The translations under genes and the position numbers were made by a program. Under the pieces are notes generated by a model, which ran no database searches, was not told the DNA's origin, and saw only the letters and a list, made by a program, of their open reading frames with translations. Below are positions 18,873 through 53,726 of a stretch of DNA of 64,000 bases, piece by piece (position 1 is the stretch's first letter; each line of letters begins with the position of its first letter). The stretch is from contig OZ241863.1 of assembly GCA_965203055.1 (NCBI GenBank), positions 1,088,001 to 1,152,000 on the forward strand. The letters are read 5' to 3'. This DNA is from Spirochaetia bacterium. GTDB taxonomy: Bacteria > Spirochaetota > Spirochaetia > SZUA-6 > Bin103.

Positions 18873-20237
18873 TCACTGGTCTACCGGCGCCTGACGATCC
18901 TCGCCGGGGCGCCCGAATCGGGCGCCGGCGTGGCGGTAGCGATGATGGGCGGCGCACAGCAGGCGGAGATTGTTCGGCTCGGCGGCGCCGCCGAGGGCAT
19001 ACGGCACGACGTGATCGATCTGCAGCAGGTGTTGGGAGCCGCAGCGGCGCCCGCTGGTGCGGTCCACGTAGCGGCAGCGGCCCCGGTCGCGCCGCCACAC
19101 CTCGCGCTTGACCGCCGCCGGGATGGCGCGGCCGGTCGCGCTGCCCGTCTTCGCTGCCGAAGTCCGGGTCCGCAGCGGCGCAGCCGGCTGCGCGCACGCC
19201 GCAGCCGGCCGGTCGAGGCGCAGTGTCTTCGTCTTCGGCGCCGAAGTGGTGTCGGTCGCCGGCTTCGTCGCCGAAGTGACCGAGCGGTCAGCGGCTTCGT
19301 CTCCCGGCTCCGCCGGCGCCTGAGCCGATACCTTCGCCGCCGAAGGAGCGGCGCTGTCCGCGCCGGCCTCCTGCTTCGCTACCGGGGCGGCGCCGCAAGC
19401 CGAGGCCGCCTGCGTCTTCGCCGCCGAAGTTTGCTCGGCGCCTTTGGCCGGCGCGGCGCGCCGCCCGCGCGGCGGCCGGGCCGGGTCGTGGCGGTCGAGT
19501 CCTTCCCGCACCAGCCGCCCCATGAGCTGCCCCAACGTCATGTGCGGGTCGACGTGGGCCAGGAGGCCCTTGAGCCGCTCCAGGCCACGCCGGCACTCAT
19601 CGTCGATCACCGCCTTGAGTTCCCAGCGCCCTCCGCCCAGGGGCCGCACCCGATCCGCCGACGCCGCCAGCTCCGGGTCCACCTCGGCCAGCATCTGCAT
19701 CACCTCCCGGCTGCTCTTGCCGGACGCCTGCTCCACCAGCTCCCGCCGCGCCTCCGAGTCCAGCACCGGCACCGGGTCCAGCACCGGCGCCGGCTTCCGC
19801 TCCGGCGCCGAGCCCTCCTGCGACTGAGCGGCAGCCCCGCACCCGGCCCCGCCCGGCGCGCTACGCGCCGCCCGCTCCTTCCTGCGCTCCTGCCGGTCGA
19901 AGGCATGCTGCAACTGCGCGGCCGCGTTCAGCGTCATCGAGCCATCCTGCAGGCGCTCGCGCACGCCGTCGACGTCAGCGCAGAGGCGCATCGCCTTGAT
20001 GCGCCGCCACGCTGCGGCGTCGCTGTAACCCAGTTCGCGCACCGCGTAATCGAACAGGCTCGAGAACCCGCGCCGCAGGTACAGGCGGCGCTTCTGAATC
20101 TCGCGCAGGTGGTCGATCACGACCACTTCGAGATGGTGTTCGATGCCGGACAGTACCTTGGTCCGCTCTAGCAGGCGGTCGTCTGAGAGGGCGGAAACGG
20201 TAGTGGTGACGGCCCCGTCGGAAGCATGATTGTTCAT
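18873..20237 (-). CDS. HNH endonuclease-domain protein with DUF222-like helical N-terminus
   Basis: C-terminal RAIPAAVKREVWRRDRGRC..C..QIDHVVP..GG..NLRLLCAAHH; N-terminal RGFSSLFDYAVRELGYS. Confidence 0.85.
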   Translation of the reverse strand: MNNHASDGAVTTTVSALSDDRLLERTKVLSGIEHHLEVVVIDHLREIQKRRLYLRRGFSSLFDYAVRELGYSDAAAWRRIKAMRLCADVDGVRERLQDGSMTLNAAAQLQHAFDRQERRKERAARSAPGGAGCGAAAQSQEGSAPERKPAPVLDPVPVLDSEARRELVEQASGKSSREVMQMLAEVDPELAASADRVRPLGGGRWELKAVIDDECRRGLERLKGLLAHVDPHMTLGQLMGRLVREGLDRHDPARPPRGRRAAPAKGAEQTSAAKTQAASACGAAPVAKQEAGADSAAPSAAKVSAQAPAEPGDEAADRSVTSATKPATDTTSAPKTKTLRLDRPAAACAQPAAPLRTRTSAAKTGSATGRAIPAAVKREVWRRDRGRCRYVDRTSGRRCGSQHLLQIDHVVPYALGGAAEPNNLRLLCAAHHRYRHAGARFGRPGEDRQAPVDQ

Positions 20238-20399: not shown

Positions 20400-20554
20400 A
20401 GGGGCCGGCTTCGGTGCCGGCGCGGGCGGCGTTGAGGGCAAGCAGGCGGGCGAGCACTTCGTCGTGGGACTCCGGCGCGGTCCATGGCGGCGTGCAGCGC
20501 GGCGCGGTACTCGTAGTACGCCCTTCCGGCGGCTTCGAGGGCGGGATCGGTCAC
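20400..20554 (-). pseudogene. Fragments of a type IIG/Eco57I-like restriction-methylase C-terminus
   Basis: LEAAGRAYYEYRAAL, LHAAMDRA and (other frame) HDEVLARLLALNAARA adjacent, intervening segments missing. Confidence 0.55.
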
Positions 20555-20617
20555 AAATTGGAAGTGCGCCGCGCCGCGCGCGCACCGCCGGCAGCCCGCA
20601 TGCTATGCTGGCAGGAG

Positions 20618-20743
20618 ATGCTCGAAACGTTGTTCCCGCGGCGCGCGGCGAACGAATTTCACGGCGCTCCGCTCGCCGGCTGGGCGCTGGCGGCCATGAC
20701 GTTGATCATGCTGGTGTTGGCGCTACGCGAGCGGAAGGTCTGA
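20618..20743 (+). CDS. 41-aa single-TM peptide, probably an internally deleted membrane-protein gene
   Basis: MLETLFPRRAANEFHGAPLAGWALAAMTLIMLVLALRERKV; stops 2 nt before DUF499 ATG. Confidence 0.35.
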   Translation: MLETLFPRRAANEFHGAPLAGWALAAMTLIMLVLALRERKV

Positions 20744-20745
20744 GC

Positions 20746-23700
20746 ATGGCGACCCCGACGATCTTCGAGACTTGCCGGCCGCGCGCCGACGTCCTCGCCG
20801 GCAGCGTCGCCGAGGCGGACTTCGCCGCCGACCTGGCCGAGGTGGTCACCGGCCGGGGCAGCGCGCAGTACCGCGATCCGGTCCGGTTCTTCGCCAACAC
20901 CTATCCGACGCGCGGGCTCAAGGCCCTGCTCGCCAACGTCTGCCGGCGGCTGAGCGGCGCCGGCGGCGAGGCGGCGGCGATCTTCCGCCTCGACACCTCC
21001 TACGGCGGCGGCAAGACCCACGCGCTGATCGCCCTGGCGCACGCGGTGCGCGGGCGGGCGGCCGGCGCCGACCTGAGCGAGTTCGTCGCGCCGGCGCTGC
21101 TGCCGGCGGGCGCGGTGCGGGTGGCGGCGTTCGACGGCGAGAACGCCGATCCCGCAAACGGGCGCGCGCTGGGCGACGGGGTGCTGGCGCACACGCCGTG
21201 GGGCGAGCTCGCGTACGCGCTGGCCGGCCGGCAGGGCTACGAGCGGGTGAGCCGCAGCGACCGGGAGGGGGCGGCTCCCGGCGCGGAGACGCTGCGCGAG
21301 CTGTTCGGCGGCGCGCCGGCCCTGATCCTGCTCGACGAGCTGTCGGTATACCTGCGCAAGGTGCAGCGTCTGCCCGGCGCCGGCGACCAGTTGACCGCGT
21401 TTCTCACCTCGCTGTTCAAGGCGGTCGAAGGAGCGCCCAACGCGGCCCTGGTCTACACCCTGGCGATCGGCAAGGATGGGCGCGCGACCGACGCCTACGG
21501 CGCGGAGAACCGCTTCATCGGCGACCGCATGGCGGAGGCGGAGAGCGTGTCGGCGCGCAAGGCCACGCTGCTCGATCCCACGGCCGAGGACGAGACAGTC
21601 CAAGTGCTGCGGCGGCGCCTGTTCGAGAGGATCGACGAAGCGGGGGCGGAGGCGGCGATCGACGCCTACCGCGAGCAGTGGGCGCTGCACGGCGGCGCGC
21701 TGCCCGCGGACGCCGCCCGCCCGGAGACCGCGCAGACCTTCGCCGCGAGCTATCCGCTGCATCCCGAGGTGCTGGCCACCCTCACCGGCAAGACCGCCAC
21801 GCTGAGCAACTTCCAGCGCGTGCGCGGCATGCTGCGGCTGCTGGCGCGCACCATCGCGCAGCTCTGGCAGGCGCGGCCCTCGGACGCCGCCGCCATCCAC
21901 CTGCACCACGTCGACCTGGGTCATGAGCCGATCCGCCAGGAGATCGTCATCCGCCTGGGGCAGTCAGCCTACCTGCCGGCGATCGCCAACGACATCGCCG
22001 CCGGCGGGGGCGAGGGCGGCACAGCGCTGGCGCAGCAGATCGACGCCGCCCGGCACGGCGGCCTGCCGCCCTACGGGGCCTACGTCGCGCGCACCATCTT
22101 CATGCACACGCTGGCGTTCAACGATCCTCTCAAGGGGCTGTCGCCGGAGCGGCTGCGCTACTCCCTGCTCGGCCCGGCTACCGACGTCGGCTTCATCGAC
22201 GAGGCGCGCCGCCGGTTCGTGGCCGATTCGGCCTATCTCGACGACCGTCCGGGCGCGCCGCTGCGGTTCCTGGCGGAGGCCAATCTGAGCCTGATCATCC
22301 GCCGCGAAGAACAGCACGTGGACGCCGGCGATGCCCGCGCGGATCTGAACGACCGCATCAAGCGGGTGTTTTCGGGGGACGCGTTCGAGCTGGTGCCGTT
22401 TCCGGGCGGGCCGTTCGACGTGCCGGACGACGTTGGCGACGGGCGCCCGCGGCTGATCGTGCCGGCCTATGACGGGGTGGCGGTCGGCGACAGCGTCGGC
22501 GCGGCGCCGGAGCTGATCGCGCGCATCTACGCCCGCAAGGGGGCGGAGGGTTCGGCGCTGCGCATGCTGCGCAACCACCTGGTGTTCGCGGTGGCGGACG
22601 CGGAGCGCAAGGCGGAGATGCAGCGCGCCGCGGTCCGGCGGCTGGCCCTGCAGGCGCTGTTGCGCCCGGAACGGCTGGCGGAGCTGGCCGAGCATCAGCA
22701 GGCCACGGTGCGCGAGCAGGCGGCGCGGTCGGAGCAGGAGTTGGCGATCGCCATCCAGCAGTGCTACCGCCACCTGTTCTATCCGTCGCGCAACCGCGTG
22801 GGCGCCGCCGACGTCGATCTGGCGCACACCGCGATCGAGCTGCCGGCGGCGTCGGACCAGCCGGGCGCCGGCCAGCAGCAGGTGGTTCGCGCGTTGCGCG
22901 AATTGGCCAAGCTGCGACTGGCCGAGGATGAACCCGACTCGCCGGCCTACGTGCGCGACCGCACGCCGCTCAAGCGGCCAGATCACGACCCTGGCGCTGC
23001 GCGACGAGTTCCGCCGCGATCCGGCGCTGCCGATCCTGAGCGGCGACGACATCTTTCTGCGCGGCATTCGGCGCGGGGTGGAGCGCGGCGACTACGTCTA
23101 CCGGCGCGGCGAGCTGCTCTACGGCCCGGACGACCCGCCGGCCGACCTGCTGATCGACGAACGGGCGCTGGTGCTGACCGTGGCCTACGCCCGCACCAAG
23201 GGCATCTGGCCCCGCCCGGCGCAGGGGGCCGCGGCCGGCGATGGCCAGGTGGGCGGGGCCGGGCCGACCGAAGGGTCCCGCAGCAACGGCGGCGGACCGG
23301 ATGAGGTGCGTCAGCCGCCGGACGGGGGATTGCCGCCGGAGAGCCCCGGACCGGGCGAGTTCACCGCCGAGGGCGTGCTGCGGGAAGCGCTGACGCGGCT
23401 GTGGGAGCAGGCGCGCGCCGGGGGCGCGGCGCGGGTCTCGAAGTTGACGATCCGCATGTTCGAGGCCGGCGACGGCTTCCGGCTGCTCGGCGCGGTGGGC
23501 GCGGTGACCGGCGCGGACAAGGAGGTGACCATGGCCGGCGGCTACGAGACCCGCGACGGCGGTTCCTTCATATTGGAGTTCAACGGTCCGGTGGCGGACG
23601 CGCAGCCGGTGCGCGAATTCCTCGAACCGCAGTTGCGGGACTGCGCCTCGCGCACGCTGGAGGTGTCGTTTCGGATCACCTTCGCCGCCGGCCTGCCGCT

Positions 23701-23797
23701 GGCGGGCGACGCCGCGGAGCGGCTCGCCGAACGGCTGGCGCGGTTCGCCGGCGGGGCGGCGTACGTGGCGGCGACCGCCGCGGCGCAGGCCTCGTGA
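20746..23797 (+). pseudogene. DUF499 family ATPase with one frameshift near 22975
   Basis: FAADL, FFANTYPT, Walker A LDTSYGGGKTH, LILLDEL, YPLHPE, FQRVRGMLRLLA; reading continues GQITTLALRDEFRRDP in another frame to 23797. Confidence 0.85.
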
Positions 23798-24285
23798 TGG
23801 CGCGCGCGGAGCGGGAGATTCGCATCGAGCCGGCCGCGTCGGCGCCGCGCTACGAGCTGCGGGTGCGCCGGCATCGGCCCGGCGCCGCCGAATACGCGGT
23901 CTGGCAGTTGCCGGCGCCGGCCACGCCGCAGGTGAAGCGGGCGCAGCGCGTCGCCCGCCTGCAAGGCGCCAACCTCGACCTGATCGAACACCGCGTGCTG
24001 CGCCGGCTGGCGCGAGCCGGCGTCCGCCTCGGCCCGCGCGCCGGCGCCGCGGACCGCGGCTATCCGCTGCCGGAGGAGGCGGCGCTGCTGCTGGGGCTGC
24101 TGTTCCGCGCCTTGGCGCCGATGCGCAACCGCGATAACATGCGCATGGTGACCGCGGGCATCGAGGCGATGGAGCCTGAGGAAGCCGCGTACTGGGCGGG
24201 CATGGCGATCCACCGCCGCCGCCCCCGCCGCGTGCTGAAGGCCCTCCGCATCCTCCTCACCGATTGCAATGCCGGACGTACCTGA
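23797..24285 (+). CDS. Small partner of DUF499 (DUF3780-like position and C-terminus)
   Basis: Start overlaps DUF499 stop; LGLLFRALAPM, EEAAYW, KALRILL. Confidence 0.65.
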   Translation: MARAEREIRIEPAASAPRYELRVRRHRPGAAEYAVWQLPAPATPQVKRAQRVARLQGANLDLIEHRVLRRLARAGVRLGPRAGAADRGYPLPEEAALLLGLLFRALAPMRNRDNMRMVTAGIEAMEPEEAAYWAGMAIHRRRPRRVLKALRILLTDCNAGRT

Positions 24286-24742
24286 AATTCGCCTTCGTCT
24301 GTCGATCTGGCGACCTGCATCGCTCGATCGTACGTACCTGCATGCCCAGGATGGCGGGTCGGGATCGGACCGGTATTCGCCGCTCGACGAGACAGGCCTC
24401 CTGGAGCAGATATACTCATGGGACTCCGGCTGGTATGACATCTCGGGATCTTCCGAGTCGGACGTGACCGATCTGATCAAAAGCCGCTTGCTGCGCCCGT
24501 TCGGCCAGCACGAGCCTCCGGCCAAACGCGGCGTGCGCCGGTTCCGCCGCGCGTTGTCCGATCTGCTTGAGGATTCCAAGGTACGCGCCGGGACTTTCTG
24601 GTCGGACTGCCCGGACACGGTGCCCACGGGTAGCGGGGACCTGAATCTGCGCGCCAACGTCACTCTTGGCGTGCTCCGACACTTTCTGTGGGTCGCCGGC
24701 GTCTACGCCGACGTCCCGGATGCCTCGGTCCTGCTCCAATGA
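24269..24742 (+). CDS. Hypothetical protein (157 aa), first gene of three-gene module
   Basis: Lower GC than flanks; overlaps previous gene; ATGA overlap with next gene. Confidence 0.65.
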   Translation: MPDVPEIRLRLSIWRPASLDRTYLHAQDGGSGSDRYSPLDETGLLEQIYSWDSGWYDISGSSESDVTDLIKSRLLRPFGQHEPPAKRGVRRFRRALSDLLEDSKVRAGTFWSDCPDTVPTGSGDLNLRANVTLGVLRHFLWVAGVYADVPDASVLLQ

Positions 24743-26811
24743 ATGAGTACGTACTGCGATCCGTTACCGGTGCCGAGAAGGCTATGGCTGACCTCTTTGC
24801 CGCTTGCGCCATGTCCGGCGGCGAACACCTGCGGCTCGAAGTTCGTGAAGATAAGTGCTTTCGACCCGACGTCTGGGTGTCGGTCGGCACCGTATCCTTG
24901 CATCCCGAATTGCCGGCTGCATCACAGGATGAGGAGGACGGGAACACCTTGCTGGAGCGGGCACTCCGATACGGCTTCTTCAACTGGGAGCTTCCAAAAG
25001 AGGACTGGCTGAAGAGTAAGCTGACAGAGGCGTTGGCGATTGAGGAACCGGCCAGAGAAAGTGCCCGGACCGTGAAGGACATTGACAGAGTAACCAGAGG
25101 CTTGGCCCACGCAGCCATCCGCTGCGGCGTGGCGCACCCCGCCTTCGACGCGATGACCCTTTCGAAGATGCCGTTTCGCAGGAACGTCGGGATAGTAATG
25201 GATACGACGGCCGTGCTGCAGGGGGGACTCGACTTTGCCGCACGCCATTTGACACCAGCCGCCCGGCTGCGCGTTCCGGCGATCGTGCAGATGGAGATAC
25301 TGAATTTCGTCGACCGCTACTTCAGCCAGCGACGCAGAGGGAAGCCTATCTCCACCATGTTGGTGGACCACATGTTGAGTCAAGCCGGACAACGCGCCCT
25401 CATCAGGCTGGGACTGGCTCATCGGGTGGAACGGCCGCGGCTCGGGGCCGAACCGCTGCGCGGCATCGTTCAGCCCGATTCCGACGCCGAAGACAAGAGC
25501 CTGGGCCTGCAGGTGGTACAGAGGAGCTTCGCCGACCGTCTCATTCTGGAGACCGCGGTGCAACGACGCAATGACGCCGCCCCCGACCATCCCGTCACAT
25601 TGATGACAGCCGATCAGGGCCTTACGCGGATGGCGCTGGCTGAAGGGATAGAACCACTCTTCTTCGATGCGAACGCGGCGTCGGCGCTACTCGGCTCCAC
25701 CCTGAGCGGCGTCACGTTCAAGCCATTCATGACCGACGGTCTTCGTACCTACCCCGTTTCCTTGTGCGCCATTCTTTGGGAACTGGCCGTGACGTTCGGC
25801 GCCGCCCGTCTGATCGGCATCGATTCCGATGACTCATTCGAAGCTGTTGCGATCGGCGAGGGATGTTCATGGCAGCCCTACCACTCTCGTGACGATCTTC
25901 TTTGGACGAGATCGGTACCGAAGTCTGCTGCCGCGAAGCCTTCGCCGAAGATCAAGGCTGCCCCTGACTCTACTGAGTCGGACTCGGCCGGTGCAGCCAC
26001 CTTGTCGACCACACCGAGTCCGCGGAGCCGTACCTTGTCTGGCGCCTACGGCTTCAGCCCCGGTTCCATGATCGATCTCATGGTGGCTCTAAATGGTGCC
26101 GCCCTTTCTGACGCAGCGGGAATGGAGGTGGCGCACGTCAATAAAAGGAACTCGTACGAACAGTATCGGAGATTCCTGTACGCAGGAGGATTCGCCGTCA
26201 AGAGCGGTGCGGAAATGGAGAAGACGGACCGCCTCTCCTCCTTGATCGGCAGTATGATCGCCGGTGCATTCGATGAGATGCGGGTGCTGCTTTCCCTCGT
26301 GCCATCTTTCAAGCGCTTTCTGACCAACGTGGAGGTAGGGAGTCCTTTGACGCAAGGCGATTCGAAAATTAACGCGACCTCCTTTCGTTCCTATTGTGCC
26401 TTGGCAGAGATGTGTTGCGCGGGCGTGCGCTTCGTCGACGCGGGAATCTATCCCACACCGGAGAATCCGACGCCGGAGCATTTCTCACGTCCGGCCCTCG
26501 CGGCTTACGATACGGTACGGCGGGGAGAAGATTACGCCCTGACGGGCGCTTGGCTGGATGAGATGACCAAGCGCTTTGGCATACACCCGGTGCGCGCGCG
26601 GCAGCGCTTGGCGGAGGCTCATCAGAGTGGACATATCCGCCGTTACGTGGAAGGATCGACTCCGGAAACCAGATACGGGAACAGGAATCTCCATGTACTC
26701 AGCTTCGACGGCGGGGTTCCCAAAGTGCGCAATGTCAATCTCTATCACGGAGACTTCCTGATGCCAGGCCGAGCCGCCGTCAGTATCAGGCTGTCGAAGG
26801 GGGAGCGATGA
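24739..26811 (+). CDS. PIN-like domain protein (690 aa) with uncharacterised C-terminal region
   Basis: IVMDTTAVL, VPAIVQMEI, ADRLILETA, LMTADQGLTRMALAEGI fit the PIN acidic-residue pattern; ATGA overlaps at both ends. Confidence 0.7.
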   Translation: MNEYVLRSVTGAEKAMADLFAACAMSGGEHLRLEVREDKCFRPDVWVSVGTVSLHPELPAASQDEEDGNTLLERALRYGFFNWELPKEDWLKSKLTEALAIEEPARESARTVKDIDRVTRGLAHAAIRCGVAHPAFDAMTLSKMPFRRNVGIVMDTTAVLQGGLDFAARHLTPAARLRVPAIVQMEILNFVDRYFSQRRRGKPISTMLVDHMLSQAGQRALIRLGLAHRVERPRLGAEPLRGIVQPDSDAEDKSLGLQVVQRSFADRLILETAVQRRNDAAPDHPVTLMTADQGLTRMALAEGIEPLFFDANAASALLGSTLSGVTFKPFMTDGLRTYPVSLCAILWELAVTFGAARLIGIDSDDSFEAVAIGEGCSWQPYHSRDDLLWTRSVPKSAAAKPSPKIKAAPDSTESDSAGAATLSTTPSPRSRTLSGAYGFSPGSMIDLMVALNGAALSDAAGMEVAHVNKRNSYEQYRRFLYAGGFAVKSGAEMEKTDRLSSLIGSMIAGAFDEMRVLLSLVPSFKRFLTNVEVGSPLTQGDSKINATSFRSYCALAEMCCAGVRFVDAGIYPTPENPTPEHFSRPALAAYDTVRRGEDYALTGAWLDEMTKRFGIHPVRARQRLAEAHQSGHIRRYVEGSTPETRYGNRNLHVLSFDGGVPKVRNVNLYHGDFLMPGRAAVSIRLSKGER

Positions 26812-27953
26812 GCCTTCGTGAACGGATGAAGCGCACGGATTCGGGCCGACAGCTGACTCTGTATCGAGAGTATGGCGTGATCGGTAATCCCTTTCCCTCA
26901 GCAGGGCAACCGTCGGGCCATCCGAGATTGGAAGATGCGATCGACGACAAGGTAGTAGATCGTTTCCGGCAGTTCGAGGACGGAAGCCATGCCTCGCAGG
27001 TGATCACGATCGAGGGAACGCAGGGCGTCGGCAAGACGAACTTGCTCAACTACTATGAATATCAGTTCCGCGATTACTATCGGGATAGCAACGCACACTA
27101 TATCATCAGATACTACCCGGATCCGGAGCCGTCCTTCGATTCGGTGCTGAGAAAGATTTTCCAGAGCTTCGACCGTGGCCACTTCGAGAACATCGGCAGG
27201 AAGCTCGCACAGGGCAAGGAAGCCGTGAGAAACAGTGCCAAGGAACGTGCTCTACACCATGACGTGAGGATCGTTCTCAACAGTTTGGAGGGAGCGGGCG
27301 ATAGTAACGATAACGAACGGATAGCCGAGTGCGCTCAACTGGCTCTGGATTGGTTCCTGGGCTTGCGCGTCCTGAAGCGGCACCGCGAAGTACTCGGCGT
27401 GAGCTTCAGGCTGGATACGGTCGAATCGCGTACGCAGGCTCTGCGTGACATCATCTATGTCAGCGAACGGTTGGATATCCTGCAGGGTGTTTTCCTGTTG
27501 CTGGACGAGCTCGAGAAACAGGACTACTCGCTCAGCAAGACCCCGGTGCTCCGCTTCCTCCTCTCCATACGGGCGTTGATCGACGCCTTGCCGGAGCGGC
27601 TGTTCCTGATGCTGGCGATGACTCCTCAGGCCCGCACGCGCTACTTCGCGATGCTTCCCGCATTGGCAGGCCGTCTGCAGGACAGAATACCGTTGTCGCC
27701 TATCAAAGACCGGACCGAGGCCCGCCGACTGTTCGATTTCTACTTGAGACGAGGGCGCGAGGCGGCGAGATCGAACCCACGCGTGCAAGGCGAGGGGCAG
27801 GGAGCCGTCGACCTGTTGGGAGCCGACGATCTGAATGAAATGTTCCGCATATGTAGGGAGGAGTCTGAGCAACGAGGAATCGAAGGCGTCACGCCTCGCG
27901 ACTTCCTGCATCGCCTGCACGGAGAGTGGGAGAGCCGGGTAACGGCCCGGTAA
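26808..27953 (+). CDS. P-loop NTPase (AAA+-like)
   Basis: YGVIGNPFP, Walker A GTQGVGKT, Walker B LLLDELE, ALAGRL, TPRDFL. Confidence 0.8.
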   Translation: MSLRERMKRTDSGRQLTLYREYGVIGNPFPSAGQPSGHPRLEDAIDDKVVDRFRQFEDGSHASQVITIEGTQGVGKTNLLNYYEYQFRDYYRDSNAHYIIRYYPDPEPSFDSVLRKIFQSFDRGHFENIGRKLAQGKEAVRNSAKERALHHDVRIVLNSLEGAGDSNDNERIAECAQLALDWFLGLRVLKRHREVLGVSFRLDTVESRTQALRDIIYVSERLDILQGVFLLLDELEKQDYSLSKTPVLRFLLSIRALIDALPERLFLMLAMTPQARTRYFAMLPALAGRLQDRIPLSPIKDRTEARRLFDFYLRRGREAARSNPRVQGEGQGAVDLLGADDLNEMFRICREESEQRGIEGVTPRDFLHRLHGEWESRVTAR

Positions 27954-27961
27954 CGTACCGG

Positions 27962-28921
27962 ATGGCTGAACCGACCGTTGCCGCGGCGCCGCCGGCCGAG
28001 CCCAAGTTTCCCGGCTGCCGTCCGGTGCGCATTACGCGCCGAGTGATAGCCGAATGCGAGGTCCGCCTGGAGTACTGGGATGCCGCCACCGAGATCGCGA
28101 TGGTGTGCGAACAGAACAGCTACTACCACGAGTCCCCCATCCATCTCCTCACCACGCTGACCGGGAATATCGCCGCGGCGCGGAGCTTGCCAATTGGGGC
28201 GGCGGGGCGCACCGACCTGCGGTTGTGCAATGCCCGCGGCGAGTGGCAGCGCATCATGCAGGCCGACCAGATCCTGTTCCTGCGCCCTGCGCGGCCGCGG
28301 GGCGACGCAATCGAGGTGGGCGTGGACAAGCTGCCGGACGTGGTGCTGGAGGTGGACAATACTACCGACGTGCGCTGCGGCAAGCTGGGGTTGTACGACT
28401 CCTGGGGCTTTCCCGAGGTATGGGTCGAGGTGCCGGACCAGCCGGCGCCGAGCCGGCCGGCGGGGCTGCGCCCCGGCCTGACGATCTACGTGCGGGAGGG
28501 CGGCCGCCTGCGCCCCGCGGCGGTGAGCCGCGCGTTTCACGGCTGGACGGCGGCGGAGATACACCGCGGGTTGAACGAGTCCGAGATGTCCGAGGAGACG
28601 GCGGCGGCGCTGGACCGGGTCGGGCGCTTGCTGGGCGCCGCCGCGGGCACGCAGCCGTATGACGATCCGTTCCAGCGCCTGTTGCTCAGGCGCAGCCGCG
28701 CCGAGGGCTATGCGGAAGGCTATGCGGAAGGCTATGCCGAGGGCTATGCGGAAGGGCTCCTGGAGGAACGCGTCGATACCATAGAGGCTATGGTGCGCGC
28801 CGGCATGCCGTGGCCGGCATCGGCGACCGGAATAGACGAGGCCGGGCTGCGCGCCATCAAGCAGGGGCTCGCCTGCTTGGTCCGCCGCTCCCGAACCGAC
28901 CGAGGCGCCGCCGACGGCTGA
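27962..28921 (+). CDS. Uma2 family PD-(D/E)xK nuclease
   Basis: HESP, MQADQ, LPDVVLEVDNTTDVR, KLGLY..WGFPEVW; C-terminal AEGY repeats. Confidence 0.75.
   Translation: MAEPTVAAAPPAEPKFPGCRPVRITRRVIAECEVRLEYWDAATEIAMVCEQNSYYHESPIHLLTTLTGNIAAARSLPIGAAGRTDLRLCNARGEWQRIMQADQILFLRPARPRGDAIEVGVDKLPDVVLEVDNTTDVRCGKLGLYDSWGFPEVWVEVPDQPAPSRPAGLRPGLTIYVREGGRLRPAAVSRAFHGWTAAEIHRGLNESEMSEETAAALDRVGRLLGAAAGTQPYDDPFQRLLLRRSRAEGYAEGYAEGYAEGYAEGLLEERVDTIEAMVRAGMPWPASATGIDEAGLRAIKQGLACLVRRSRTDRGAADG
28700..28756 (+). repeat. 12-nt tandem repeat (~4.75 copies) encoding AEGY
   Basis: GCSGARGGCTAT units. Confidence 0.85.
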
Positions 28922-29057
28922 AGGCACAGAATAACTCAAGCGGCGCCGCCCCTGCGCCGGCCCCGCTCCCCCGGAGCCGCCGACGGCTGCGTCCCTCGGC
29001 CAGCCGGACCCGCTGCCCGATGAAGATGTCTTTACGTCTGGCATTTTTCCGGGAATA

Positions 29058-30215
29058 ATGCCAGGCATGTTTGCACGGCTGCTGCGGCGCCCCGGATCGT
29101 CGTGCTTTCTGTTCGGCCCGCGCGGTACCGGGAAGTCGACGTGGATTGCGCGCCACTTCGCGGGCGCCCGGCTCTACGATCTGCTCAACACGACCGAGGC
29201 GCTGCGCCTGGCGCGCGAGCCGGCCACGCTGTTTCGGGAAGTGGAGGGACTGTCCGCCGGCGATTGGGTGGTGATCGATGAGGTCCAGCGCGTCCCGGAG
29301 CTGCTCAACGAGGTCCACCGCCTGATCGAGACGCGCCGGCTCCGGTTCGTCCTGTCGGGATCGAGCGCCCGCAAGCTGCGCCGCGGCGGCGCCAACCTGC
29401 TCGCCGGGCGGGCGGTGGTCCATCATCTGTTTCCGCTGGTGTCGGCGGAACGATCCTTTCAGGTCGACTTCGACGATGCGCTCCGCCACGGCGCCCTGCC
29501 GCTTGCGGTCACCGGCGACGATCCGGCCGCCTACCTGAGCGCCTATGCCGAGACCTATCTGCAGGAAGAGATCCGCGCCGAGGCGTTGACGCGGAGCGTC
29601 GGCAGCTTCAACCGCTTCCTGGAGATCGCGGCCCGGCAGAACGGACAGGTGACCAACGTCTCCTCCATCTCCCGCGATGCCGCGGTGAGCCGGTCCACGG
29701 TGCAAAACTACTTCGAGATCCTCATCGACACCCTGATCGGAAACTGGCTGCCCGCCTGGAAGCTCAAGCGCGCGACCAAGCAGGTCGCGCACCCCAAGTT
29801 CTACCTGTTCGATTGCGGGGTGGCGCGCGCGCTGTCCGGCCGGATCGCCTATCCGCCGTCCCCGGAGGAGCGCGGCGCTCTGCTGGAGACGGCGCTGCTG
29901 GGCGAGATCCGCGCGTACCTGGCGTACAACGGGCTGCGGTATCCGCTCCACTACTGGCGGACCCACGACGGAGTGGAGGTCGACCTGCTGTGCGAGAGCG
30001 GCGCCGGCTTCATCGCCGTGGAGATGAAAGCGTCGGCGCGGTGGGACGCGCGCTACAACCGCGGCCTCAACCGGCTCCGCGACGAGCTCGGCGCCGGCCG
30101 GGTCACCTGCTACGGCGTCTACGAAGGGGAGCGGCCGGCGACGTGGGGCAGCGTCCGGGTGCTGCCGGCGCCGGAGTTTCTGAAGCGACTCTGGAACGGG
30201 GAAGTACTGCGCTGA
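29058..30215 (+). CDS. AAA_14 ATPase + DUF4143 protein
   Basis: FLFGPRGTGKST, IDEVQR, SGSSARKL, LLAGRA, PKFYLFDCGV, YWRT..EVDL..VEMK. Confidence 0.88.
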   Translation: MPGMFARLLRRPGSSCFLFGPRGTGKSTWIARHFAGARLYDLLNTTEALRLAREPATLFREVEGLSAGDWVVIDEVQRVPELLNEVHRLIETRRLRFVLSGSSARKLRRGGANLLAGRAVVHHLFPLVSAERSFQVDFDDALRHGALPLAVTGDDPAAYLSAYAETYLQEEIRAEALTRSVGSFNRFLEIAARQNGQVTNVSSISRDAAVSRSTVQNYFEILIDTLIGNWLPAWKLKRATKQVAHPKFYLFDCGVARALSGRIAYPPSPEERGALLETALLGEIRAYLAYNGLRYPLHYWRTHDGVEVDLLCESGAGFIAVEMKASARWDARYNRGLNRLRDELGAGRVTCYGVYEGERPATWGSVRVLPAPEFLKRLWNGEVLR

Positions 30216-30319
30216 GCCCGGTCACGGCCGCGGCCGCCGGTGCTGGCCGCGCCTCTCACTCCCGTCGGCTGCGCTGCTCGAACCAGATGCGCCGGCAGCG
30301 AGGCAAGCAAGCGGCGCCT

Positions 30320-31605
30320 GGTGGCCGCAGGTGGCCGCACCTGCTGAGGGCCGGTCCTTGTGTGCCGCTCGCATGTGGTATGATCGGCACCTGACCATGC
30401 ACGATGCCGGCTACAAGCGGTTGTTCGCGCAGCCGCACACGGTTCAGGACCTGCTGCGCGGCTTCGCCGCCCGTGACTGGAGCGAGGCGCTCGACTTCTC
30501 GACCCTCACCCCGGTGCCGGCCAGCTTCGTCAGCCACCGCCTGCGCCAGCGCCACGGCGATCTGGTGTGGCGGGTCCGGTTCCACGATGAATGGCTGTAC
30601 CTCCTGGTGCTGCTGGAGTTCCAGTCCACCGTCGAGCCGGCCATGGCAACGCGGATGCTGACCTACACCGGCATGCTGTACGAGAAGCTGATCGACGACG
30701 GCGTGCTGCGCGAACATGGCAAGCTGCCGCCGGTGCTGCCGATCGTGATCTACAACGGCAGCCAGCCGTGGACGGCGGCCGAGGACGTGGCGGAGCTGAT
30801 CGCGTTCGGCGGGGAGGCGCTAGCGCGGTATCAGCCGTCGTTGCGCTACTATCTGCTTGACCAGGGGCGGCTGGGAGCGGACGATCTGCCGGGTCGCAAC
30901 CTGGTGTCGGCGCTGATCGCGCTGGAGACCAATCGCGCGGATGAGCGGGTGCCGGAGTTGCTGGCGGCGCTGTTCGAGCGGCTGCGGGAGTTGGAGACCC
31001 CAGAGTTGACGCAAGTGTACCGGGAATGGGTGAATCAGGTGCTGGTGCCGCGCAAGATGAAGGGCACGGTGCTGGAATCGTTGCCGGGATCGGAGGAGGT
31101 AGGGCCGATGTTGCAGGAGTTGGTAGCCGGATGGGTCGCGGAAGGCCGCGAGCAGGGTATCGAGCAGGGTATCGAGCAGGGCCGCGGCGAAGAACGAAGG
31201 CTGTTGTGCCGGCAGGCGGCACGGAAGTTCACGCCGGAAACGGCGCCGCGGTTGTCCGTCCTGCTGGAGCGCCTGACCGATCCGGAGAGCCTGTTGCAGG
31301 TCGGCGACTGGATCATCGAGTGCAAGACCGAGAGGGATCTGCTGGCCCGCGTGCAGGACGCGATTCCATAACCGACGCTGAGCTGGATGAACGCACGAAA
31401 ATCGCCGGCGGTGATGGTGAACGTCATCCGGCCAAAGACGCAGCTCTCGCGCCGTTTCGTTGTTATCGCTCGTAACGGCGATCCGGTGGCGCGTCTTGTC
31501 GGCCTCGAGGGCACGCGGGGCACGCGCCGGTTCGGCGCGTTGCGGGATCGGATCGTCGTCGATGGCCGCTTCCCCGAACCGCTCCCGGAGAGCGAGCTGG
31601 CCCGC
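30320..31605 (+). repeat. Direct repeat copy 1 (~1.25 kb: promoter + rpn + phd remnant); copy 2 ~32755-33998
   Basis: Near-identical sequence by eye, including upstream GCCGCACCTGCTGAGGGCCGGTCC. Confidence 0.9.
30397..31371 (+). CDS. Rpn family recombination-promoting nuclease/putative transposase (copy 1)
   Basis: HDAGYKRLF, RHGDLVWRV, LLEFQS, LPPVLPIVIYNG, C-terminal EQG repeats; TGnTATGAT upstream. Confidence 0.9.
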   Translation: MHDAGYKRLFAQPHTVQDLLRGFAARDWSEALDFSTLTPVPASFVSHRLRQRHGDLVWRVRFHDEWLYLLVLLEFQSTVEPAMATRMLTYTGMLYEKLIDDGVLREHGKLPPVLPIVIYNGSQPWTAAEDVAELIAFGGEALARYQPSLRYYLLDQGRLGADDLPGRNLVSALIALETNRADERVPELLAALFERLRELETPELTQVYREWVNQVLVPRKMKGTVLESLPGSEEVGPMLQELVAGWVAEGREQGIEQGIEQGRGEERRLLCRQAARKFTPETAPRLSVLLERLTDPESLLQVGDWIIECKTERDLLARVQDAIP

Positions 31606-31626
31606 TGGGAGTCGTCGGCGAGCTGA
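31387..31626 (+). pseudogene. Phd/YefM antitoxin remnant
   Basis: KTQLSR joined directly to VVIARNGDPVARLV; RRFGAL; EPLPESEL. Confidence 0.6.
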
Positions 31627-31700
31627 TCGAAGAAATGGGACCGCAGTTGTTCGGCCCCCCGGCCCCGCCGCCGATTGAGACCTGTTGCCGCCCAGGGCGG

Positions 31701-31912
31701 CTACATGCTCTGAAATCCTGCCAATCGATTCCCAACTGCCGAACGGCCGCACGGATCGTTCCCGATTTCAGATCGCGTCCACCGTGGTCAGGAATGACCG
31801 TGGTTCTCCGGGACGCGGGATTGTACCACTTCCGATGAGAACCACTGCCTCGTCGTTGACGCTCGCTGCAACCGAGAAATCGCCAATTTCGGGCGACTTC
31901 ACGGTACGTGAC
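31701..31912 (-). pseudogene. hicA: HicA toxin remnant lacking a start codon
   Basis: VTYREVAR..LGC..RRGSGSHRKWYNP..TVIPDHGGRDLKSGTIRAAVRQLGI; begins GTC with in-frame TAG upstream. Confidence 0.7.
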
Positions 31913-32153
31913 TGGCCGCTATCACGGTTTCGAACCACACCGGGCCGTTTGCTTCGGTAATCCAGATGCTCCGCGGCAACAACCGGCCGTCCTCCTGGTA
32001 GAGTTCGATGACCGCGGCAAGAGCATCCTTGGCGTTTTCCAGGGCGTCACTCAGAGTATCCCCCTCGGTTACCAATTCCGGCAGCGCAGGAGAGGTCACG
32101 GTATAGCCGCCTTCCGGTTGAGGTGTCATGACCAGCGGTACTTTGTATTCCAT
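31899..32153 (-). CDS. hicB: HicB family antitoxin
   Basis: PQPEGGYTVTSPALPELVTEGDTLSDALENAKDAL. Confidence 0.8.
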   Translation of the reverse strand: MEYKVPLVMTPQPEGGYTVTSPALPELVTEGDTLSDALENAKDALAAVIELYQEDGRLLPRSIWITEANGPVWFETVIAASHVP

Positions 32154-32309
32154 CAATCGTCTGCCTTCGCAGGGTAGCATAACTCTTGCAGGCTGGCAGG
32201 CAGGTTGTCGAGCCACGCTTGATACTCCGCCTGCAGGTCGAGCAGCGTGCGTACTGCCTCCTGCCAGCGTTGCGGACGCGATCTGCTGCTGGCTGGCGCA
32301 GGGTGGCGC

Positions 32310-32654
32310 GCTGGCGGCTGTTGAGACTCTCGAACTGCTGCCGCAGCCGCTCCTTGGCTGCCGATGACACCTCCTCCGCTGCCAGCACCCGTTGATACGG
32401 CGTCTGCGGCGCATCGTACTGGCGCCGCGTCCGCGCTCCCTGCCTCGTCTTCGCCACCAGCTTCTGCGATCTTGACCAGGCGCCCGCCCCGCCAGATGAA
32501 CACGGTGCGCCCCCAGCAGCGCAGCACCCACGCGGCATGATGGCGCGTCCAGCCGTTCAACTGCATCAACTGATCCAGGATGATGCCCTTCGTGCGCCGC
32601 GACCCGCGCCAGTTCGCGCGTCACCGACTTGCGCTCTGCCATGGTCAGCCCCAT
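32310..32654 (-). pseudogene. Integrase-core-type transposase remnant (N- and C-termini only)
   Basis: MGLTMAERKSVTRE..ILDQLMQLNGWTRHHAAWVL joined to QKLVAKTRQGAR..YDAPQTPYQRVL; catalytic core absent. Confidence 0.6.
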
Positions 32655-32829
32655 CTCCTCCGACCTCCTGCCCCGATCTTGGGCCAGGTCGTTCGGGTGG
32701 ATTCTTAGATTAGATGAGGCACCACTTACCCCTCGAGTGGATTTGGGTGCGGCAATGCGCCTGGTTGCCGCACCTGCTGAGGGCCGGTCCTTGTGTGCCG
32801 CTCGCATGTGGTATGATCGGCACCTGACC

Positions 32830-33792
32830 ATGCACGATGCTGGCTACAAGCGGTTGTTTGCGCAGCCGCACACGGTTCAGGACCTGTTGCGCGGCTTCGC
32901 CGCCCGCGACTGGAGCGAGGCTCTCGACTTCTCGACCCTCACCCCGGTGCCGGCCAGCTTCGTCAGCCACCGCCTGCGCCAGCGCCACGGCGATCTGGTG
33001 TGGCGGGTCCGGTTCCACGATGAATGGCTGTACCTCCTGGTGCTGCTGGAGTTCCAGTCCACCATCGAGCCGGCCATGGCAACGCGGATGCTGACCTACA
33101 CCGGCATGCTGTACGAGAAGCTGATCGACGACGGCGTGCTGCGCGAACATGGCAAGCTGCCGCCGGTGCTGCCCATCGTGATCTACAACGGGCGCCAACC
33201 GTGGACGGCGGCCGAGGACGTGGCGGAGCTGATCGCGTTCGGCGGGGAGGCGCTGGCGCGGTATCAGCCGTCGCTGCGCTACTATCTGCTTGACCAGGGG
33301 CGGCTGGGAGCGGACGATCTGCCGGGTCGCAACTTGGTGTCGGCGCTGATCGCGCTGGAGACCAATCGCGCGGATGAGCGGACGCCGGAGTTGCTGGCAG
33401 CGCTGTTCGAGCGGCTGCGGGAGTTGGAGACCCCAGAGTTGACGCAAGTGTACCGGGAATGGGTGAATCAGGTGCTGGTGCCGCGCAAGATGAAGGGCAC
33501 GGCGTTGGAATCGTTGCCGGGATCGGAGGAGGTAGGGCCGATGTTGCAGGAATTGGTAGCCGGATGGGTCGCGGAAGGCCGCGAACAGGGTATCGAGCAG
33601 GGCCGTAGCGAAGAACGCAGGCGGCTGTGCCGGCAGGCGGCGCTGAAGTTCACGCCGGAAACGGCGCCGCGGTTGTCCGTCCTGTTGGAGGGTCTGACCG
33701 ATCCGGAGAGCCTGTTGCAGGTCGGCGACTGGATCATCGAATGCGAGACTGAGGAGGATCTGTTGGCCCGTGTGCAGGACGCGATCCCATAA
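32830..33792 (+). CDS. Rpn family nuclease/putative transposase (copy 2)
   Basis: Near-identical to 30397-31371, one fewer EQGI repeat. Confidence 0.9.
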   Translation: MHDAGYKRLFAQPHTVQDLLRGFAARDWSEALDFSTLTPVPASFVSHRLRQRHGDLVWRVRFHDEWLYLLVLLEFQSTIEPAMATRMLTYTGMLYEKLIDDGVLREHGKLPPVLPIVIYNGRQPWTAAEDVAELIAFGGEALARYQPSLRYYLLDQGRLGADDLPGRNLVSALIALETNRADERTPELLAALFERLRELETPELTQVYREWVNQVLVPRKMKGTALESLPGSEEVGPMLQELVAGWVAEGREQGIEQGRSEERRRLCRQAALKFTPETAPRLSVLLEGLTDPESLLQVGDWIIECETEEDLLARVQDAIP

Positions 33793-33807
33793 CCCGGATC
33801 GCCGGCG

Positions 33808-34070
33808 GTGACGGTGAACGTCATCCGGCCAAGACGCAGATCTCGCCTCGTTTCGTTGTTATCGTTCGTAACGGCGATCCGGTGGCGCGTCTTGTCGGCC
33901 TCGAGGGCACGCAGGGCACGCGCCGGTTCGGCGCGTTGCGGGATCGGATCGTCGTCGATGACCGCTTCTTCGAACCGCTCCCGGAGAGCGATCTGGCCGA
34001 TGGACGCCGTGATCCATGCGGGTTCTGCTCAATACCATGCCTGCTGTGGTGCCTTGCCGGTAGTGCACCG
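33808..34070 (+). pseudogene. Decayed phd antitoxin followed by a VapC/PIN toxin stump
   Basis: Second copy of phd remnant; ATG 34016 MRVLLNT then frameshifted LLWCLAG (cf. MRxLLDTHxLLW). Confidence 0.5.
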
Positions 34071-34110
34071 ACTTCGCGTGCAGATCACGACATGATCGGC
34101 AACCGCGGCG

Positions 34111-37100: not shown

Positions 37101-38185
37101 GGAGAGACTGGCAAGCGAATATCTAGATCTTCATGAGCGATCGTGGCCAGATGAGCCGGAGCTAGCGGATAGAGCAACATTGTATTTGGATGATCTGTCG
37201 ATTACCTACTTCTTGCATATCGGTATCTTGGATAAAATCTACAGCGCGGGTTATCGAGTATTAGTTTCCCAAAGACGCGTATCGGATGCCAATCGTCTGA
37301 TTTCGTATCAGAGCGTTTTAGCGAAGGTGGACTGTGCAATTGAACAAGTCAGAGATGCGCTTCACAGGGGATTAATCGCAGGCAAGGTTTCGGTTGGAAA
37401 GAGGTTCGTCAACCGTGATATGGCGGACGAATCAATCGCGAGACACTCTACGATAGGTGTCGTTGGATTAGCAGATGTCTGTAATGCGATGGTGATCGAT
37501 GACAGGTTCATGAATAGACACCAGAATGTAGCCAATACCGAAGTTCTTACTACGCTTGATGTAATCGACATACTGGTTGGTCAGGGCGCTATGTCGGAGG
37601 ACGATCGGTTGGATTACCGTGCTTCTCTCCGTAGATATGGGTACGTCTCTATCTCTCTCGAACCCGACGAACTAAGGCAGCACATTGCGATGTCCACGGT
37701 AAAGGGTGGTGCGGTCTTAGAGACGGCTGAATTGAGGGCCATTCGAGAGAACATTCTAGCTCTTAGAATGGGACGTTGGATTCATAATCACGACGGATTC
37801 CTTTGGATCAACTCGTTCTTCAAGGTACTCAAGGATACCTTGAAGGATCTCTGGAGTGGTAGCGATGAACTTTCCAATGTCCGAGCTTGGTCGGATTGGA
37901 TCATGAGCCAGGTCGATATTCGTGGATGGATACACACTTTCGACAAGGTAAAGGATGGTGGCGTTATCGCGCGAATGTACATGATGACAGTCGCCGATTT
38001 GGTGCTTTCTCCGATGACGATTCCTGTGGAGAGACGGGATGAATTCCATCGTTTGGTTGGAGGAGCGAATACTGATTCCTATCAGGGACCATGATCGTGA
38101 AGTATTTTCGCAGATGGTCGGATATTGTCGAGAGTTGATTTCGAAAGCCGCTAATACCAACCTTAAGGAGTTTCAGAAGAAGTGA
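34111..38185 (+). CDS. Large protein: N-terminal HNH, helical/TPR-like middle, PIN-like C-terminal region; frameshift near 38053
   Basis: SGNQCAHPGC..CHIYA..GPR..NLILLCAHHHGIVD; IAVDGTAL, LYLDDL, MVIDDRF; ORF stops at 38094 as read, alternative frame ends at 38185. Confidence 0.75.
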
Positions 38186-40113: not shown

Positions 40114-40169
40114 ATTCGGAATCGATTGGTGATATTTGAGCAGCATGGACAGCATGATTGGTGGCGGGC

Positions 40170-53712: not shown

Positions 53713-53726
53713 GGCAGCCGCGCGGA

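Follow-up and report, generated by a model that had tools for sequence, protein, structure and literature searches.

A conserved three-gene cassette with a predicted AAA+ ATPase and a multidomain PIN protein in a spirochaetal Hma operon: a candidate defence module

The trio and its closest described relatives

Hma operons, which combine a DUF499 ATPase, a small DUF gene, a DUF1156 methylase and a PLD(HKD)-SNF2 helicase, are known for embedded defence cargo and were renamed Type-2 DUF499-centred bacteriophage exclusion (BREX)-related (BR) systems in the main text of a 2026 survey (PMC12839542). According to the accessible text of a preprint by Payne et al. 2024 (bioRxiv 10.1101/2024.01.29.577857), embedded genes occur in 62.7% of 1,485 Hma systems, and seven of nine tested Hma-embedded candidates protected against phage. 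Here, we analyze three genes, termed g1, g2 and g3, that lie within such an operon in a 64,000-nucleotide stretch of a Spirochaetia bacterium genome (assembly GCA_965203055.1, contig OZ241863.1, positions 1,088,001 to 1,152,000; hereafter the window, numbered from its first letter). On balance, we lean towards reading this trio as a conflict module of three proteins that is autonomous and horizontally mobile and that most likely serves anti-phage or anti-plasmid defence. A sequence-only reading of the window had already flagged it as a candidate new antiphage system, and this proposal gained support from the findings below that the homologues co-occur, that g2 has a PIN fold and that no described system matches. 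The three genes, with open reading frames (ORFs) given in nucleotides (nt) and lengths in amino acids (aa), are:

24269-24742, plus strand: g1, a W-rich 157-aa partner protein of no known family, defined by its ORF and an alignment of 20 homologues
24739-26811, plus strand: g2, a 690-aa multidomain PIN-nuclease protein read from an ATG start, the presumed effector
26808-27953, plus strand: g3, an AAA+ ATPase of 381 aa belonging to the ORC/Cdc6-BrxC kind and presumed to be a sensor or switch

The nearest named idea is HEC-03 (Payne et al. 2024, bioRxiv 10.1101/2024.01.29.577857), which is likewise Hma-embedded and pairs a P-loop ATPase with a PIN protein in proposed sensor and effector roles. 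As presented in the accessible text of that preprint, HEC-03 comprises two genes encoding an ABC-type ATPase and a small VapC-like PIN protein, whereas the trio has three, with an AAA+ ATPase of the ORC/Cdc6-BrxC kind and a 690-aa multidomain PIN protein. PADLOC-DB 2.0.0, which includes HEC and PDC candidates as well as BREX, was run on the window proteins, 26 g2 relatives and 23 g3 relatives, down to an expect value (E) of ≤1. Even at this cut-off, neither HEC-03A nor HEC-03B was among the matches listed for g1-g3 and these relatives (25 of 27 families listed for g3). No model matched g1, g2 or any of the 26 g2 relatives, and the 23 g3 relatives gave weak P-loop matches to mad8 (16/23), PifA (13/23), PtuA (7) and DpdH (6) among the 25 of 27 families listed. 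The 2026 survey (PMC12839542) argues that nucleases embedded in BREX and BR operons are backup effectors, with PIN endoRNases among the rarer ones; its text, leaving the supplementary data aside, describes PIN only in pairs with OLD-type ABC ATPases.

Within BREX, the BrxC-BrxB-PglZ proteins (9zll, 9zdx) resemble the trio in joining an AAA+ ATPase to a small adaptor and an effector protein. The similarity to g3 is, however, limited to the fold class, no Pfam match links g1 to BrxB, the trio contains no PglZ, PglX or BrxL, and none of its proteins matches a PglZ or PglX model in PADLOC. BrxC is also larger than 1000 aa, compared with 381 aa for g3. A second parallel is found in the dyads of an ORC/Cdc6-clade ATPase and a triple winged-helix protein (SspC-SspB, DpdH-DpdG and the Orc/Cdc6 conflict systems), none of which has the composition of the trio in the accessible text of PMC10853773. 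The trio likewise places an ORC/Cdc6-like AAA+ protein beside one with possibly three winged helices. All matches of the trio to Dpd or Ssp components were sub-threshold, though: the DpdH matches of the six g3 relatives (best E 1.4e-4) covered the P-loop region alone (residues 63-146 of the window g3), no DpdG, SspB or DptG model in PADLOC matched g2, nor did any other Ssp model. Moreover, the nuclease of the trio is a PIN rather than an HNH protein or restriction endonuclease (REase), and the cassette has no modification genes.

PIN domains are coupled to partner proteins or ATPases in further contexts. VapBC pairs are two-gene operons in which a PIN toxin of about 130-150 aa is combined with a small antitoxin that binds DNA; like them, the trio couples a PIN protein to a partner, but it has three genes, g1 belongs to no antitoxin or DNA-binding family and g2 is far larger than VapC. 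In archaeal PINA (PDB 5f4h) and in PhoH2, a PIN domain is coupled to an ATPase by fusion, whereas these parts are separate in the trio, whose ATPase class differs from PhoH; 5f4h is among the fold matches of g2. NCBIfam holds no family for the trio proteins and Pfam only AAA_22 (g3) and a sub-threshold PIN_4 (g2). A full-text literature search found no description of the trio, which the candidate tables of Payne et al. 2024 could hold under a code name, although the PADLOC PDC models were unmatched. The papers on MANTIS (Gao_RL) and MADS proved unrelated. The absence of a named counterpart, reported by the sequence-only reading, thus extends to PADLOC-DB 2.0.0, Pfam, NCBIfam and the literature found. 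The overall plan of a nucleoside triphosphatase switch and a nuclease effector is familiar; its parts are undescribed and include two unnamed families, g1 and the g2 architecture.

A conserved cassette and its probable exchange in an operon slot

All three genes are co-oriented and linked by ATGA overlaps (g1/g2 at 24739-24742, g2/g3 at 26808-26811), in agreement with the arrangement first described from the letters. An alternative upstream GTG start for g2 at 24688 is unsupported by homologue N-termini and was not favoured because the homologues align from the ATG at 24739. In 500-nt windows of this high-GC DNA, the guanine-cytosine (GC) content of the trio (0.546-0.636 across 24500-27999) lies visibly below that of its flanks (0.684-0.762 over 20500-24499 and 0.674-0.728 over 28000-30499), again as had been noted. 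A regulatory-signal scan of the window found no clear promoter-like site ahead of g1, no terminator-like site was seen on the plus strand between 20000 and 29083, and Rfam matched no RNA gene over 20-47 kb of the window. Given the lack of such a terminator-like site, expression of the trio from the host operon is plausible.

A scan with 26 aligned g2 homologues, in which each species was represented by a single genome, yielded 42 related loci. In every one of these, tblastn places g3 immediately downstream of g2, and in 37 it places g1 immediately upstream, showing that the homologues do co-occur. The five loci without a g1 call comprise two with a 5'-truncated g2 (L006, L031), two in which the contig ends inside g2 (L035, L042) and one with a transposase upstream (L036), in which g2 and g3 are apparently kept without a detectable g1. 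Junctions stay tight across loci, where the genes overlap by 4 nt or lie about 10 nt apart, and annotation of neighbours in the related loci revealed no fourth conserved gene beside the trio. The hosts are four Spirochaetia metagenome-assembled genomes, Alpha- and Gammaproteobacteria, Nitrospinae, Geomesophilobacter, NaphS2, Acidobacteria, Thiomargarita, 24 cyanobacteria and one Thermoplasmata archaeon. Desulfuromonadota-like bacteria are among them, and the range takes in no fewer than seven groups of bacteria at phylum level besides the one archaeon. Hma genes occur within 10 kb in only five of the 42 loci (tblastn with the window Hma proteins, E≤1e-5), in at least three arrangements: after DUF7680, after HmaA and before HmaB. 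As no Hma system accompanies the other 37 relatives, the trio is a conserved cassette that is complete in itself and does not rely on its host operon.

One 768-aa protein, P0391, encoded on a single 9310-nt contig, joins the C-terminal part of g2 (from residue 213) in-frame to the N-terminal part of g3. It was set aside as fusion evidence, as it may represent read-through, an assembly artefact or a rare natural fusion.

In the window, the cassette follows HmaC and the DUF7680 gene of the Hma / "Type-2 BREX-related" operon, and HmaB and HmaA resume 12 kb later. The operon genes are:

20746-23797, plus strand: HmaC, DUF499 ATPase (PADLOC HmaC E 9.3e-99; Pfam DUF499), frameshifted in the window
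23797-24285, plus strand: DUF7680 gene (Pfam DUF7680 E 2.7e-41), start read from the translation
40158-43115, plus strand: HmaB, DUF1156 N6-methylase (PADLOC HmaB E 3.5e-69; Pfam DUF1156)
43118-46330, plus strand: HmaA, helicase of phospholipase D (PLD)-SNF2 type (PADLOC HmaA E 3.6e-55; Pfam SNF2-rel_dom, Helicase_C, PLDc_2)

PADLOC and Pfam thereby specify the restriction-like operon of the sequence-only reading as an Hma system. The start of g1 does lie within the 3' end of the preceding gene, by 17 nt; that gene had been called DUF3780-like, an identity that gave way to DUF7680. Likewise, the claim that frameshifts are absent holds for the trio itself, but not for the adjacent upstream HmaC, whose reading frame shifts near 22973-22974. 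Because 2 bp are missing there in a GCGCG run relative to the otherwise 98-100% identical copy in L001, the host HmaC either is a pseudogene or carries an assembly error.

The embedding raises the question of whether the trio depends on the Hma / Type-2 BREX-related system and serves it as an accessory, or 'backup effector', acting only with DUF499, methylase and helicase, for example when those are inhibited. Such a role would agree with the window and the five of 42 loci in which the cassette lies inside or abuts Hma, in at least three arrangements, with the backup function that the survey text (PMC12839542) sees for embedded nucleases, and with BrxC being the best fold match of g3. We nevertheless consider it highly improbable: tblastn at E≤1e-5 places no Hma gene within 10 kb of the cassette in 37 of the 42 loci, the g3 profile shows no relationship to that of the window HmaC (hhalign probability 0.4%, by which g3 was also rejected as an HmaC paralogue), and the synonymous divergence of the cassette is uncoupled from that of the Hma core. 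The trio is thus neither a core nor an obligate part of these operons.

This uncoupling is seen in comparison with L001. Nucleotide identity to this locus is 0.97-1.00 over HmaC and DUF7680 and 0.74-0.97 over the trio, and is gone at the g3 stop. Synonymous divergence amounts to 0.017 for HmaC, 0.061 for DUF7680, 0.188 for g1, 0.287 for g2 and 0.132 for g3, placing the trio (24269-27953 against L001 9537-13236) 8- to 17-fold above the adjacent HmaC. Because it is synonymous divergence that jumps relative to HmaC and DUF7680, this is not merely faster protein evolution, and the trio appears to have been exchanged, or to have arrived separately, in the same slot; the pattern suggests cassette exchange at a fixed position behind the DUF7680 gene. 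The ratio of non-synonymous to synonymous substitution rates (dN/dS) of the trio genes is 0.32-0.55 against L001 and 0.16-0.28 against L007, indicating purifying selection and, therefore, maintenance of all three genes. Since each is conserved across phyla and under such selection, they are, as judged from their sequences, real genes rather than chance ORFs. No convincing terminal inverted repeats bound the trio in the window, where only short, imperfect GC-rich matches were seen, and a transposon reading was dropped for this reason.

Predicted protein architecture and the g1-g2 complex

The presumed effector, g2, has 376 full-length homologues at E≤1e-3, every one of them unnamed or 'hypothetical'. 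Its AlphaFold2 model has a mean pLDDT score (predicted local distance difference test) of 81.0 and a predicted template modelling (pTM) score of 0.56, with most of the PIN core at pLDDT 85-95. The following parts were delineated:

24739-25158, plus strand: N-terminal alpha/beta domain of g2 (residues 1-140), no assignment, from model secondary structure
25171-25728, plus strand: PIN domain of g2 (residues ~145-330), from Foldseek and invariant acidic residues
25432-25509, plus strand: conserved loop in the PIN domain (residues 232-257), RPRLGAxPLRGIVQPDSDAEDKxLGL, modelled as disordered
25930-26034, plus strand: Ser/Pro/Ala-rich disordered linker of g2 (residues 398-432), pLDDT ~30
26041-26808, plus strand: C-terminal domain of g2 (residues 435-690), from DSSP of the model

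Foldseek matched the PIN region to SMG6/EST1A (2hwx, 2dok, 2hww), 3ix7, 3i8o, Nmd4 and 1o4w with probabilities of 0.98-1.00 and target template modelling (TM) scores of 0.55-0.69, and also to the archaeal PIN-ATPase 5f4h, bearing out the three-layer alpha/beta/alpha fold of PIN domains. The pattern from which it had originally been recognized is fully present, in DTTAV (D155), E186, ADRLILE (D266) and TADQGL (D292). These four acidic residues, which we take to be catalytic from the general PIN motif pattern, are invariant in 26/26 aligned homologues. By sequence, Pfam PIN_4 scores 16.9 bits on the window g2 against a gathering cut-off of 21.9 (E 0.008), and it matches 17 of the 26 relatives at E≤0.01, the best at 4.1e-7. 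Within residues 235-262, 13 of 28 positions are invariant or nearly so, yet pLDDT is below 50, as it also is for the conserved EGSTPETRY (638-646) and YHGDF (669-678) blocks. These low-pLDDT loops, which rank with the best-conserved blocks of g2, are probably elements that need a partner or substrate to fold, making them candidate partner or substrate contacts or regulatory elements.

The linker has no conserved position among 35 and varies in length among homologues. It had been correctly described as Ser/Pro/Ala-rich, whereas the tail behind it measures about 255 residues rather than the roughly 350 first estimated; a further 140 or so unassigned residues precede the PIN domain, and the model places a small beta domain (residues 335-395) ahead of the linker. 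Conserved positions of the N-domain are C40, W46, G79, W83, P134 and D137, and it contributes to the predicted g1-binding surface (residues 55-82, 132-142). The top Foldseek match of g2 is 9jxx, SiRe_0806 with cyclic tetra-adenylate (cA4; 291 columns, query TM score (TMq) 0.23), so that a ligand-sensing N-domain is a lead only; nothing was found in the literature on SiRe_0806. The tail is modelled as three helix-helix-helix-strand-strand units and a terminal beta-hairpin part, in which the EGSTPE and GDF motifs are invariant. Low-ranking Foldseek matches of g2 include the winged-helix proteins 5k5q, 2xub and 2g7u, and the ESM Atlas returned unnamed clusters for the tail at 0.91-0.92, whereas its named leads all stayed under 0.9 (FokI recognition domain 0.79, DpdG-like 0.78, HTH_45 0.78).

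The predicted g3 ATPase matches Pfam AAA_22 (E 1.4e-7). Of its 761 homologues (E≤1e-3), none bears a more specific name than 'AAA family ATPase' or 'ORC1/DEAH AAA+ ATPase domain-containing'. Its AlphaFold2 model (pLDDT 87.6, pTM 0.82) has the N-terminal part of BrxC as best Foldseek match (9zll, E 2e-4, TMq 0.44), followed by ORC2 (1w5s/1w5t), Cdc6 (1fnn), MuB (8xvb), RdrA (8hr8) and TnsC (7plh); across these top matches, E ranges from 2e-4 to 1.2e-3 and TMq, at 0.30-0.44, is moderate. No ABC ATPase was among the matches listed. As modelled, g3 is an AAA+ ATPase with a fold nearest to BrxC, ORC and Cdc6. The model ends in three helices (302-321, 339-355, 363-380) and a single-residue strand, with no wing of the kind found in the C-terminal winged helix of Orc1/Cdc6 evident from secondary structure. 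Sequence-profile searches of the PDB gave no meaningful match for g1, g2 or g3, the best being an NB-ARC protein at E 0.03 for g3. The motifs that had been picked out from the letters, NPF, Walker A GTQGVGKT and Walker B LLLDELE (residues 230-236), were all recovered:

26886-26897, plus strand: NPFP motif of g3 (residues 27-30), invariant in 23/23 homologues
27015-27038, plus strand: Walker A motif GTQGVGKT of g3 (residues 70-77), with Q72, G73, G75, K76 and T77 invariant in 23/23
27492-27509, plus strand: Walker B motif FLLLDE of g3 (residues 229-234), with L231, D233 and E234 invariant in 23/23

The partner protein g1 had been called an orphan, which proved wrong: a profile search retrieved 241 cluster representatives at E≤1e-3, 207 of them at ≤1e-10. 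The best 150 of the 241 are 97-249 aa long and carry no recognizable second domain, indicating an essentially stand-alone protein. Among the 20 aligned homologues, W14, P16, Y49, W51, F78, R87, W111, H138, W141 and P150 are invariant. Searches of Pfam, the PDB (sequence profile), NCBIfam and PADLOC-DB 2.0.0 gave no match to g1, and the ESM Atlas no usable one.

Complex prediction on user alignments of 26 and 91 rows suggests that g1 binds g2. The interaction prediction score from aligned errors (ipSAE), a model confidence rather than a measurement, reached 0.85, 0.86 and 0.85, compared with 0.00 for the best of three controls; of 157 solved complexes, 116 attain the mark applied to it, as do 2 of 215 mismatched pairs, rates that are only approximate with user alignments. 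The runs agree in ≥90% of contacts, with a partner pLDDT of ≥77. The predicted interface (g1 48-56 and 111-152 against g2 55-82, 132-142 and 313-339) follows the seam where the N-domain of g2 meets the PIN-flanking strands. On the g1 side, 8 of 14 conserved positions (Y49, W51, W111, L127, R128, H138, W141, V149) fall within the 32-residue interface (hypergeometric p = 0.0016). The g2 side is not enriched (8/30, p = 0.23), because g2 is conserved throughout.

A small gene translationally coupled upstream of a PIN gene, with strongly predicted binding of the two products, is also what a toxin-antitoxin or addiction module would look like. In that case, g2 would be the PIN toxin, g1 the antitoxin and g3 a regulator or chaperone, together stabilizing host islands, instead of sensing phage, in a manner that overlaps abortive infection. 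Toxin-antitoxin genes do occur near some loci: L011 has a PIN protein, L040 a Phd antitoxin and the window a HicB-like ORF. However, g1 has no recognizable DNA-binding or antitoxin family, and its predicted interface lies at the junction of N-domain and PIN flank, naming none of the four acidic residues. In addition, g2 is a 690-aa protein with three extra domains, the ATPase is present in 42/42 loci, and L036 seems to have retained g2 and g3 although no g1 is detectable there. We therefore regard a toxin-antitoxin module as a somewhat unlikely explanation.

Genomic neighbourhoods and the case for defence

Neighbouring genes within 7 kb were annotated in 12 non-Hma loci, applying PADLOC models at E≤1e-5. 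Defence models occur near the cassette in six of them. In L009, a DrmMI/Type IIG methylase lies directly upstream and PDC-M28C and a dGTPase downstream; in L017, ShosTA, a Type II methylase and an REase are directly upstream, together with more restriction-modification genes; in L038, DndB and a DndC-DndD fusion follow directly downstream. L029 carries a PD-T4-4_A-like ATPase and PDC-S03, and L039 and L040 each match a helicase model. Integrases or transposases flank the cassette in L003, L004, L009 and L036. Genes of defence systems or mobile elements are thus common, though not constant, neighbours.

Several observations weigh against a defence module. The assignment draws on genomic context, that is, on guilt by association, and the other six of the 12 non-Hma loci have no PADLOC defence neighbour (no match in L003, L010, L034 and L036, only RecQ in L004 and only a marginal homing-endonuclease match in L011). 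In Nostocales, the cassette occupies a recurring slot beside the housekeeping men genes, metallophosphoesterase and NadA: in L011, L020, L029, L039 and L040 (Nostoc, Calothrix, Scytonema and an uncultured cyanobacterium), metallophosphoesterase and NadA lie downstream, and in Nostoc the men/phylloquinone genes lie upstream. Such a recurring position is more readily read as stable inheritance than as a defence island with rapid turnover. A tblastn search with g2 found no match in 72,556 plasmids or 50,697 phage records; because the cassette is absent from these collections, its mobility is read only from patchy distribution, GC content and flanking integrases. About six of the 42 g2 genes show apparent decay, their ORFs falling below 600 aa although no contig end is near. 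At the protein level, the g2 tail looks like three winged helices by model secondary structure and sub-threshold leads, with no sequence-level match in the PDB or Pfam. Finally, the predicted g1-g2 interface names none of the g2 acidic residues (residues not named being uncertain rather than excluded) and, lying off these residues, offers no immediate clue to the gating of activity.

The Nostocales slot bears most directly on the idea of a housekeeping or element-maintenance machine, either an ORC/MuB/TnsC-like loader with a DNA-binding nuclease serving replication, partition or transposition of an unrecognized element, or a Nostocales RNA-processing complex. The recurring chromosomal position beside NadA and the metallophosphoesterase in Nostoc, Calothrix and Scytonema would suit such a machine, as would the resemblance of g3 to the target-selection ATPases MuB and TnsC and to ORC/Cdc6 initiators, and the purifying selection on all three genes. 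Yet no transposase, replicase or partition gene is conserved alongside, no terminal inverted repeats bound the trio in the window, the plasmid and phage collections lack the cassette, and its distribution across phyla is patchy, with decayed copies. Taken together, we judge a housekeeping role very unlikely.

Returning to the conflict module that we favour, a working scheme would have four steps. g1 and g2 would form a stable complex, with g1 docked, as predicted, at the junction of the g2 N-domain and the PIN-flanking strands. The winged-helix-like tail of g2, g3 or both may then recognize invader nucleic acid or an invader-induced state, and ATP binding or hydrolysis by g3, suggested by its invariant Walker A and B motifs, would turn the complex on. 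In the last step, the PIN site (D155, E186, D266, D292) could cut RNA, leading to arrest of the infected cell, or cut invader DNA. The sequence-only reading had spoken of an RNase; g2 might just as well act on DNA, as an ORC-like ATPase and a winged-helix-like tail would fit DNA sensing or cleavage equally well. In the window, the cassette would have been inserted into the slot after the DUF7680 gene, a site known to collect defence cargo. A more specific version, which we consider quite unlikely, is a stand-alone immunity in which the ORC/BrxC-like AAA+ protein as loader and a triple-winged-helix reader place the PIN domain on invader DNA as a restriction-type DNase. On this view, its repeated capture by Hma/BREX-related operons would mean that it guards them and is set off once the DUF499 machinery has been disabled by an anti-restriction protein of a phage; g1 would be a decoy or latch displaced by that phage factor.

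The trio shares its place in the window with further cargo, which extends over about 16 kb between the DUF7680 and HmaB genes, about 12 kb of it (27926-40113) past the trio:

27926-28921: ORF without a family, overlapping the g3 end by 28 nt and carrying a four-fold AEGY repeat
29058-30215: AAA_14-DUF4143 ATPase (PADLOC PDC-S01 E 1e-60)
30331-31371 and 32629-33792: two YhgA-like Transposase_31 genes
31899-32831, minus strand: HicB-like ORF
34111-38094: 1327-aa protein with an N-terminal HNH-type endonuclease region (PADLOC PDC-M68A E 5e-38), HTH_upst_double_PIN and PIN-TPR-GreABC
38182-40113: 643-aa protein without a family

The sole match to the first of these ORFs among the 42 related loci is a weak one on the opposite strand in L002; for this reason and for its lack of a family, we placed it outside the cassette. 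The 1327-aa HNH/HTH/PIN protein has the lowest GC content of the region (~0.48-0.55) and appears to be another PIN-based candidate effector, one that entered this operon gap independently. Three minus-strand positions around the operon (18873-20237, 50966-51973 and 52522-53910) hold two HNH-endonuclease ORFs that flank the Hma region and a downstream AAA_21/AAA_15 (AbiEii-like) ATPase, adding further defence-type genes to its surroundings.

With its clear, mutable active site and ATPase switch, the trio is directly testable. Should it not serve defence, its stable retention in Nostocales would point to an as yet undescribed nucleic-acid housekeeping complex. If the defence role is true, the trio would constitute a widespread three-component system that adds two protein families unnamed in databases, g1 and the g2 architecture. 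It would then extend the 'guilt by embedding' logic for Hma/BREX-related operons to an AAA+-PIN design, unlike the earlier ABC-ATPase designs, and offer a tractable case for studying how ORC/BrxC-like ATPases control effectors and whether PIN_4-type nucleases are used on DNA or on RNA in immunity.

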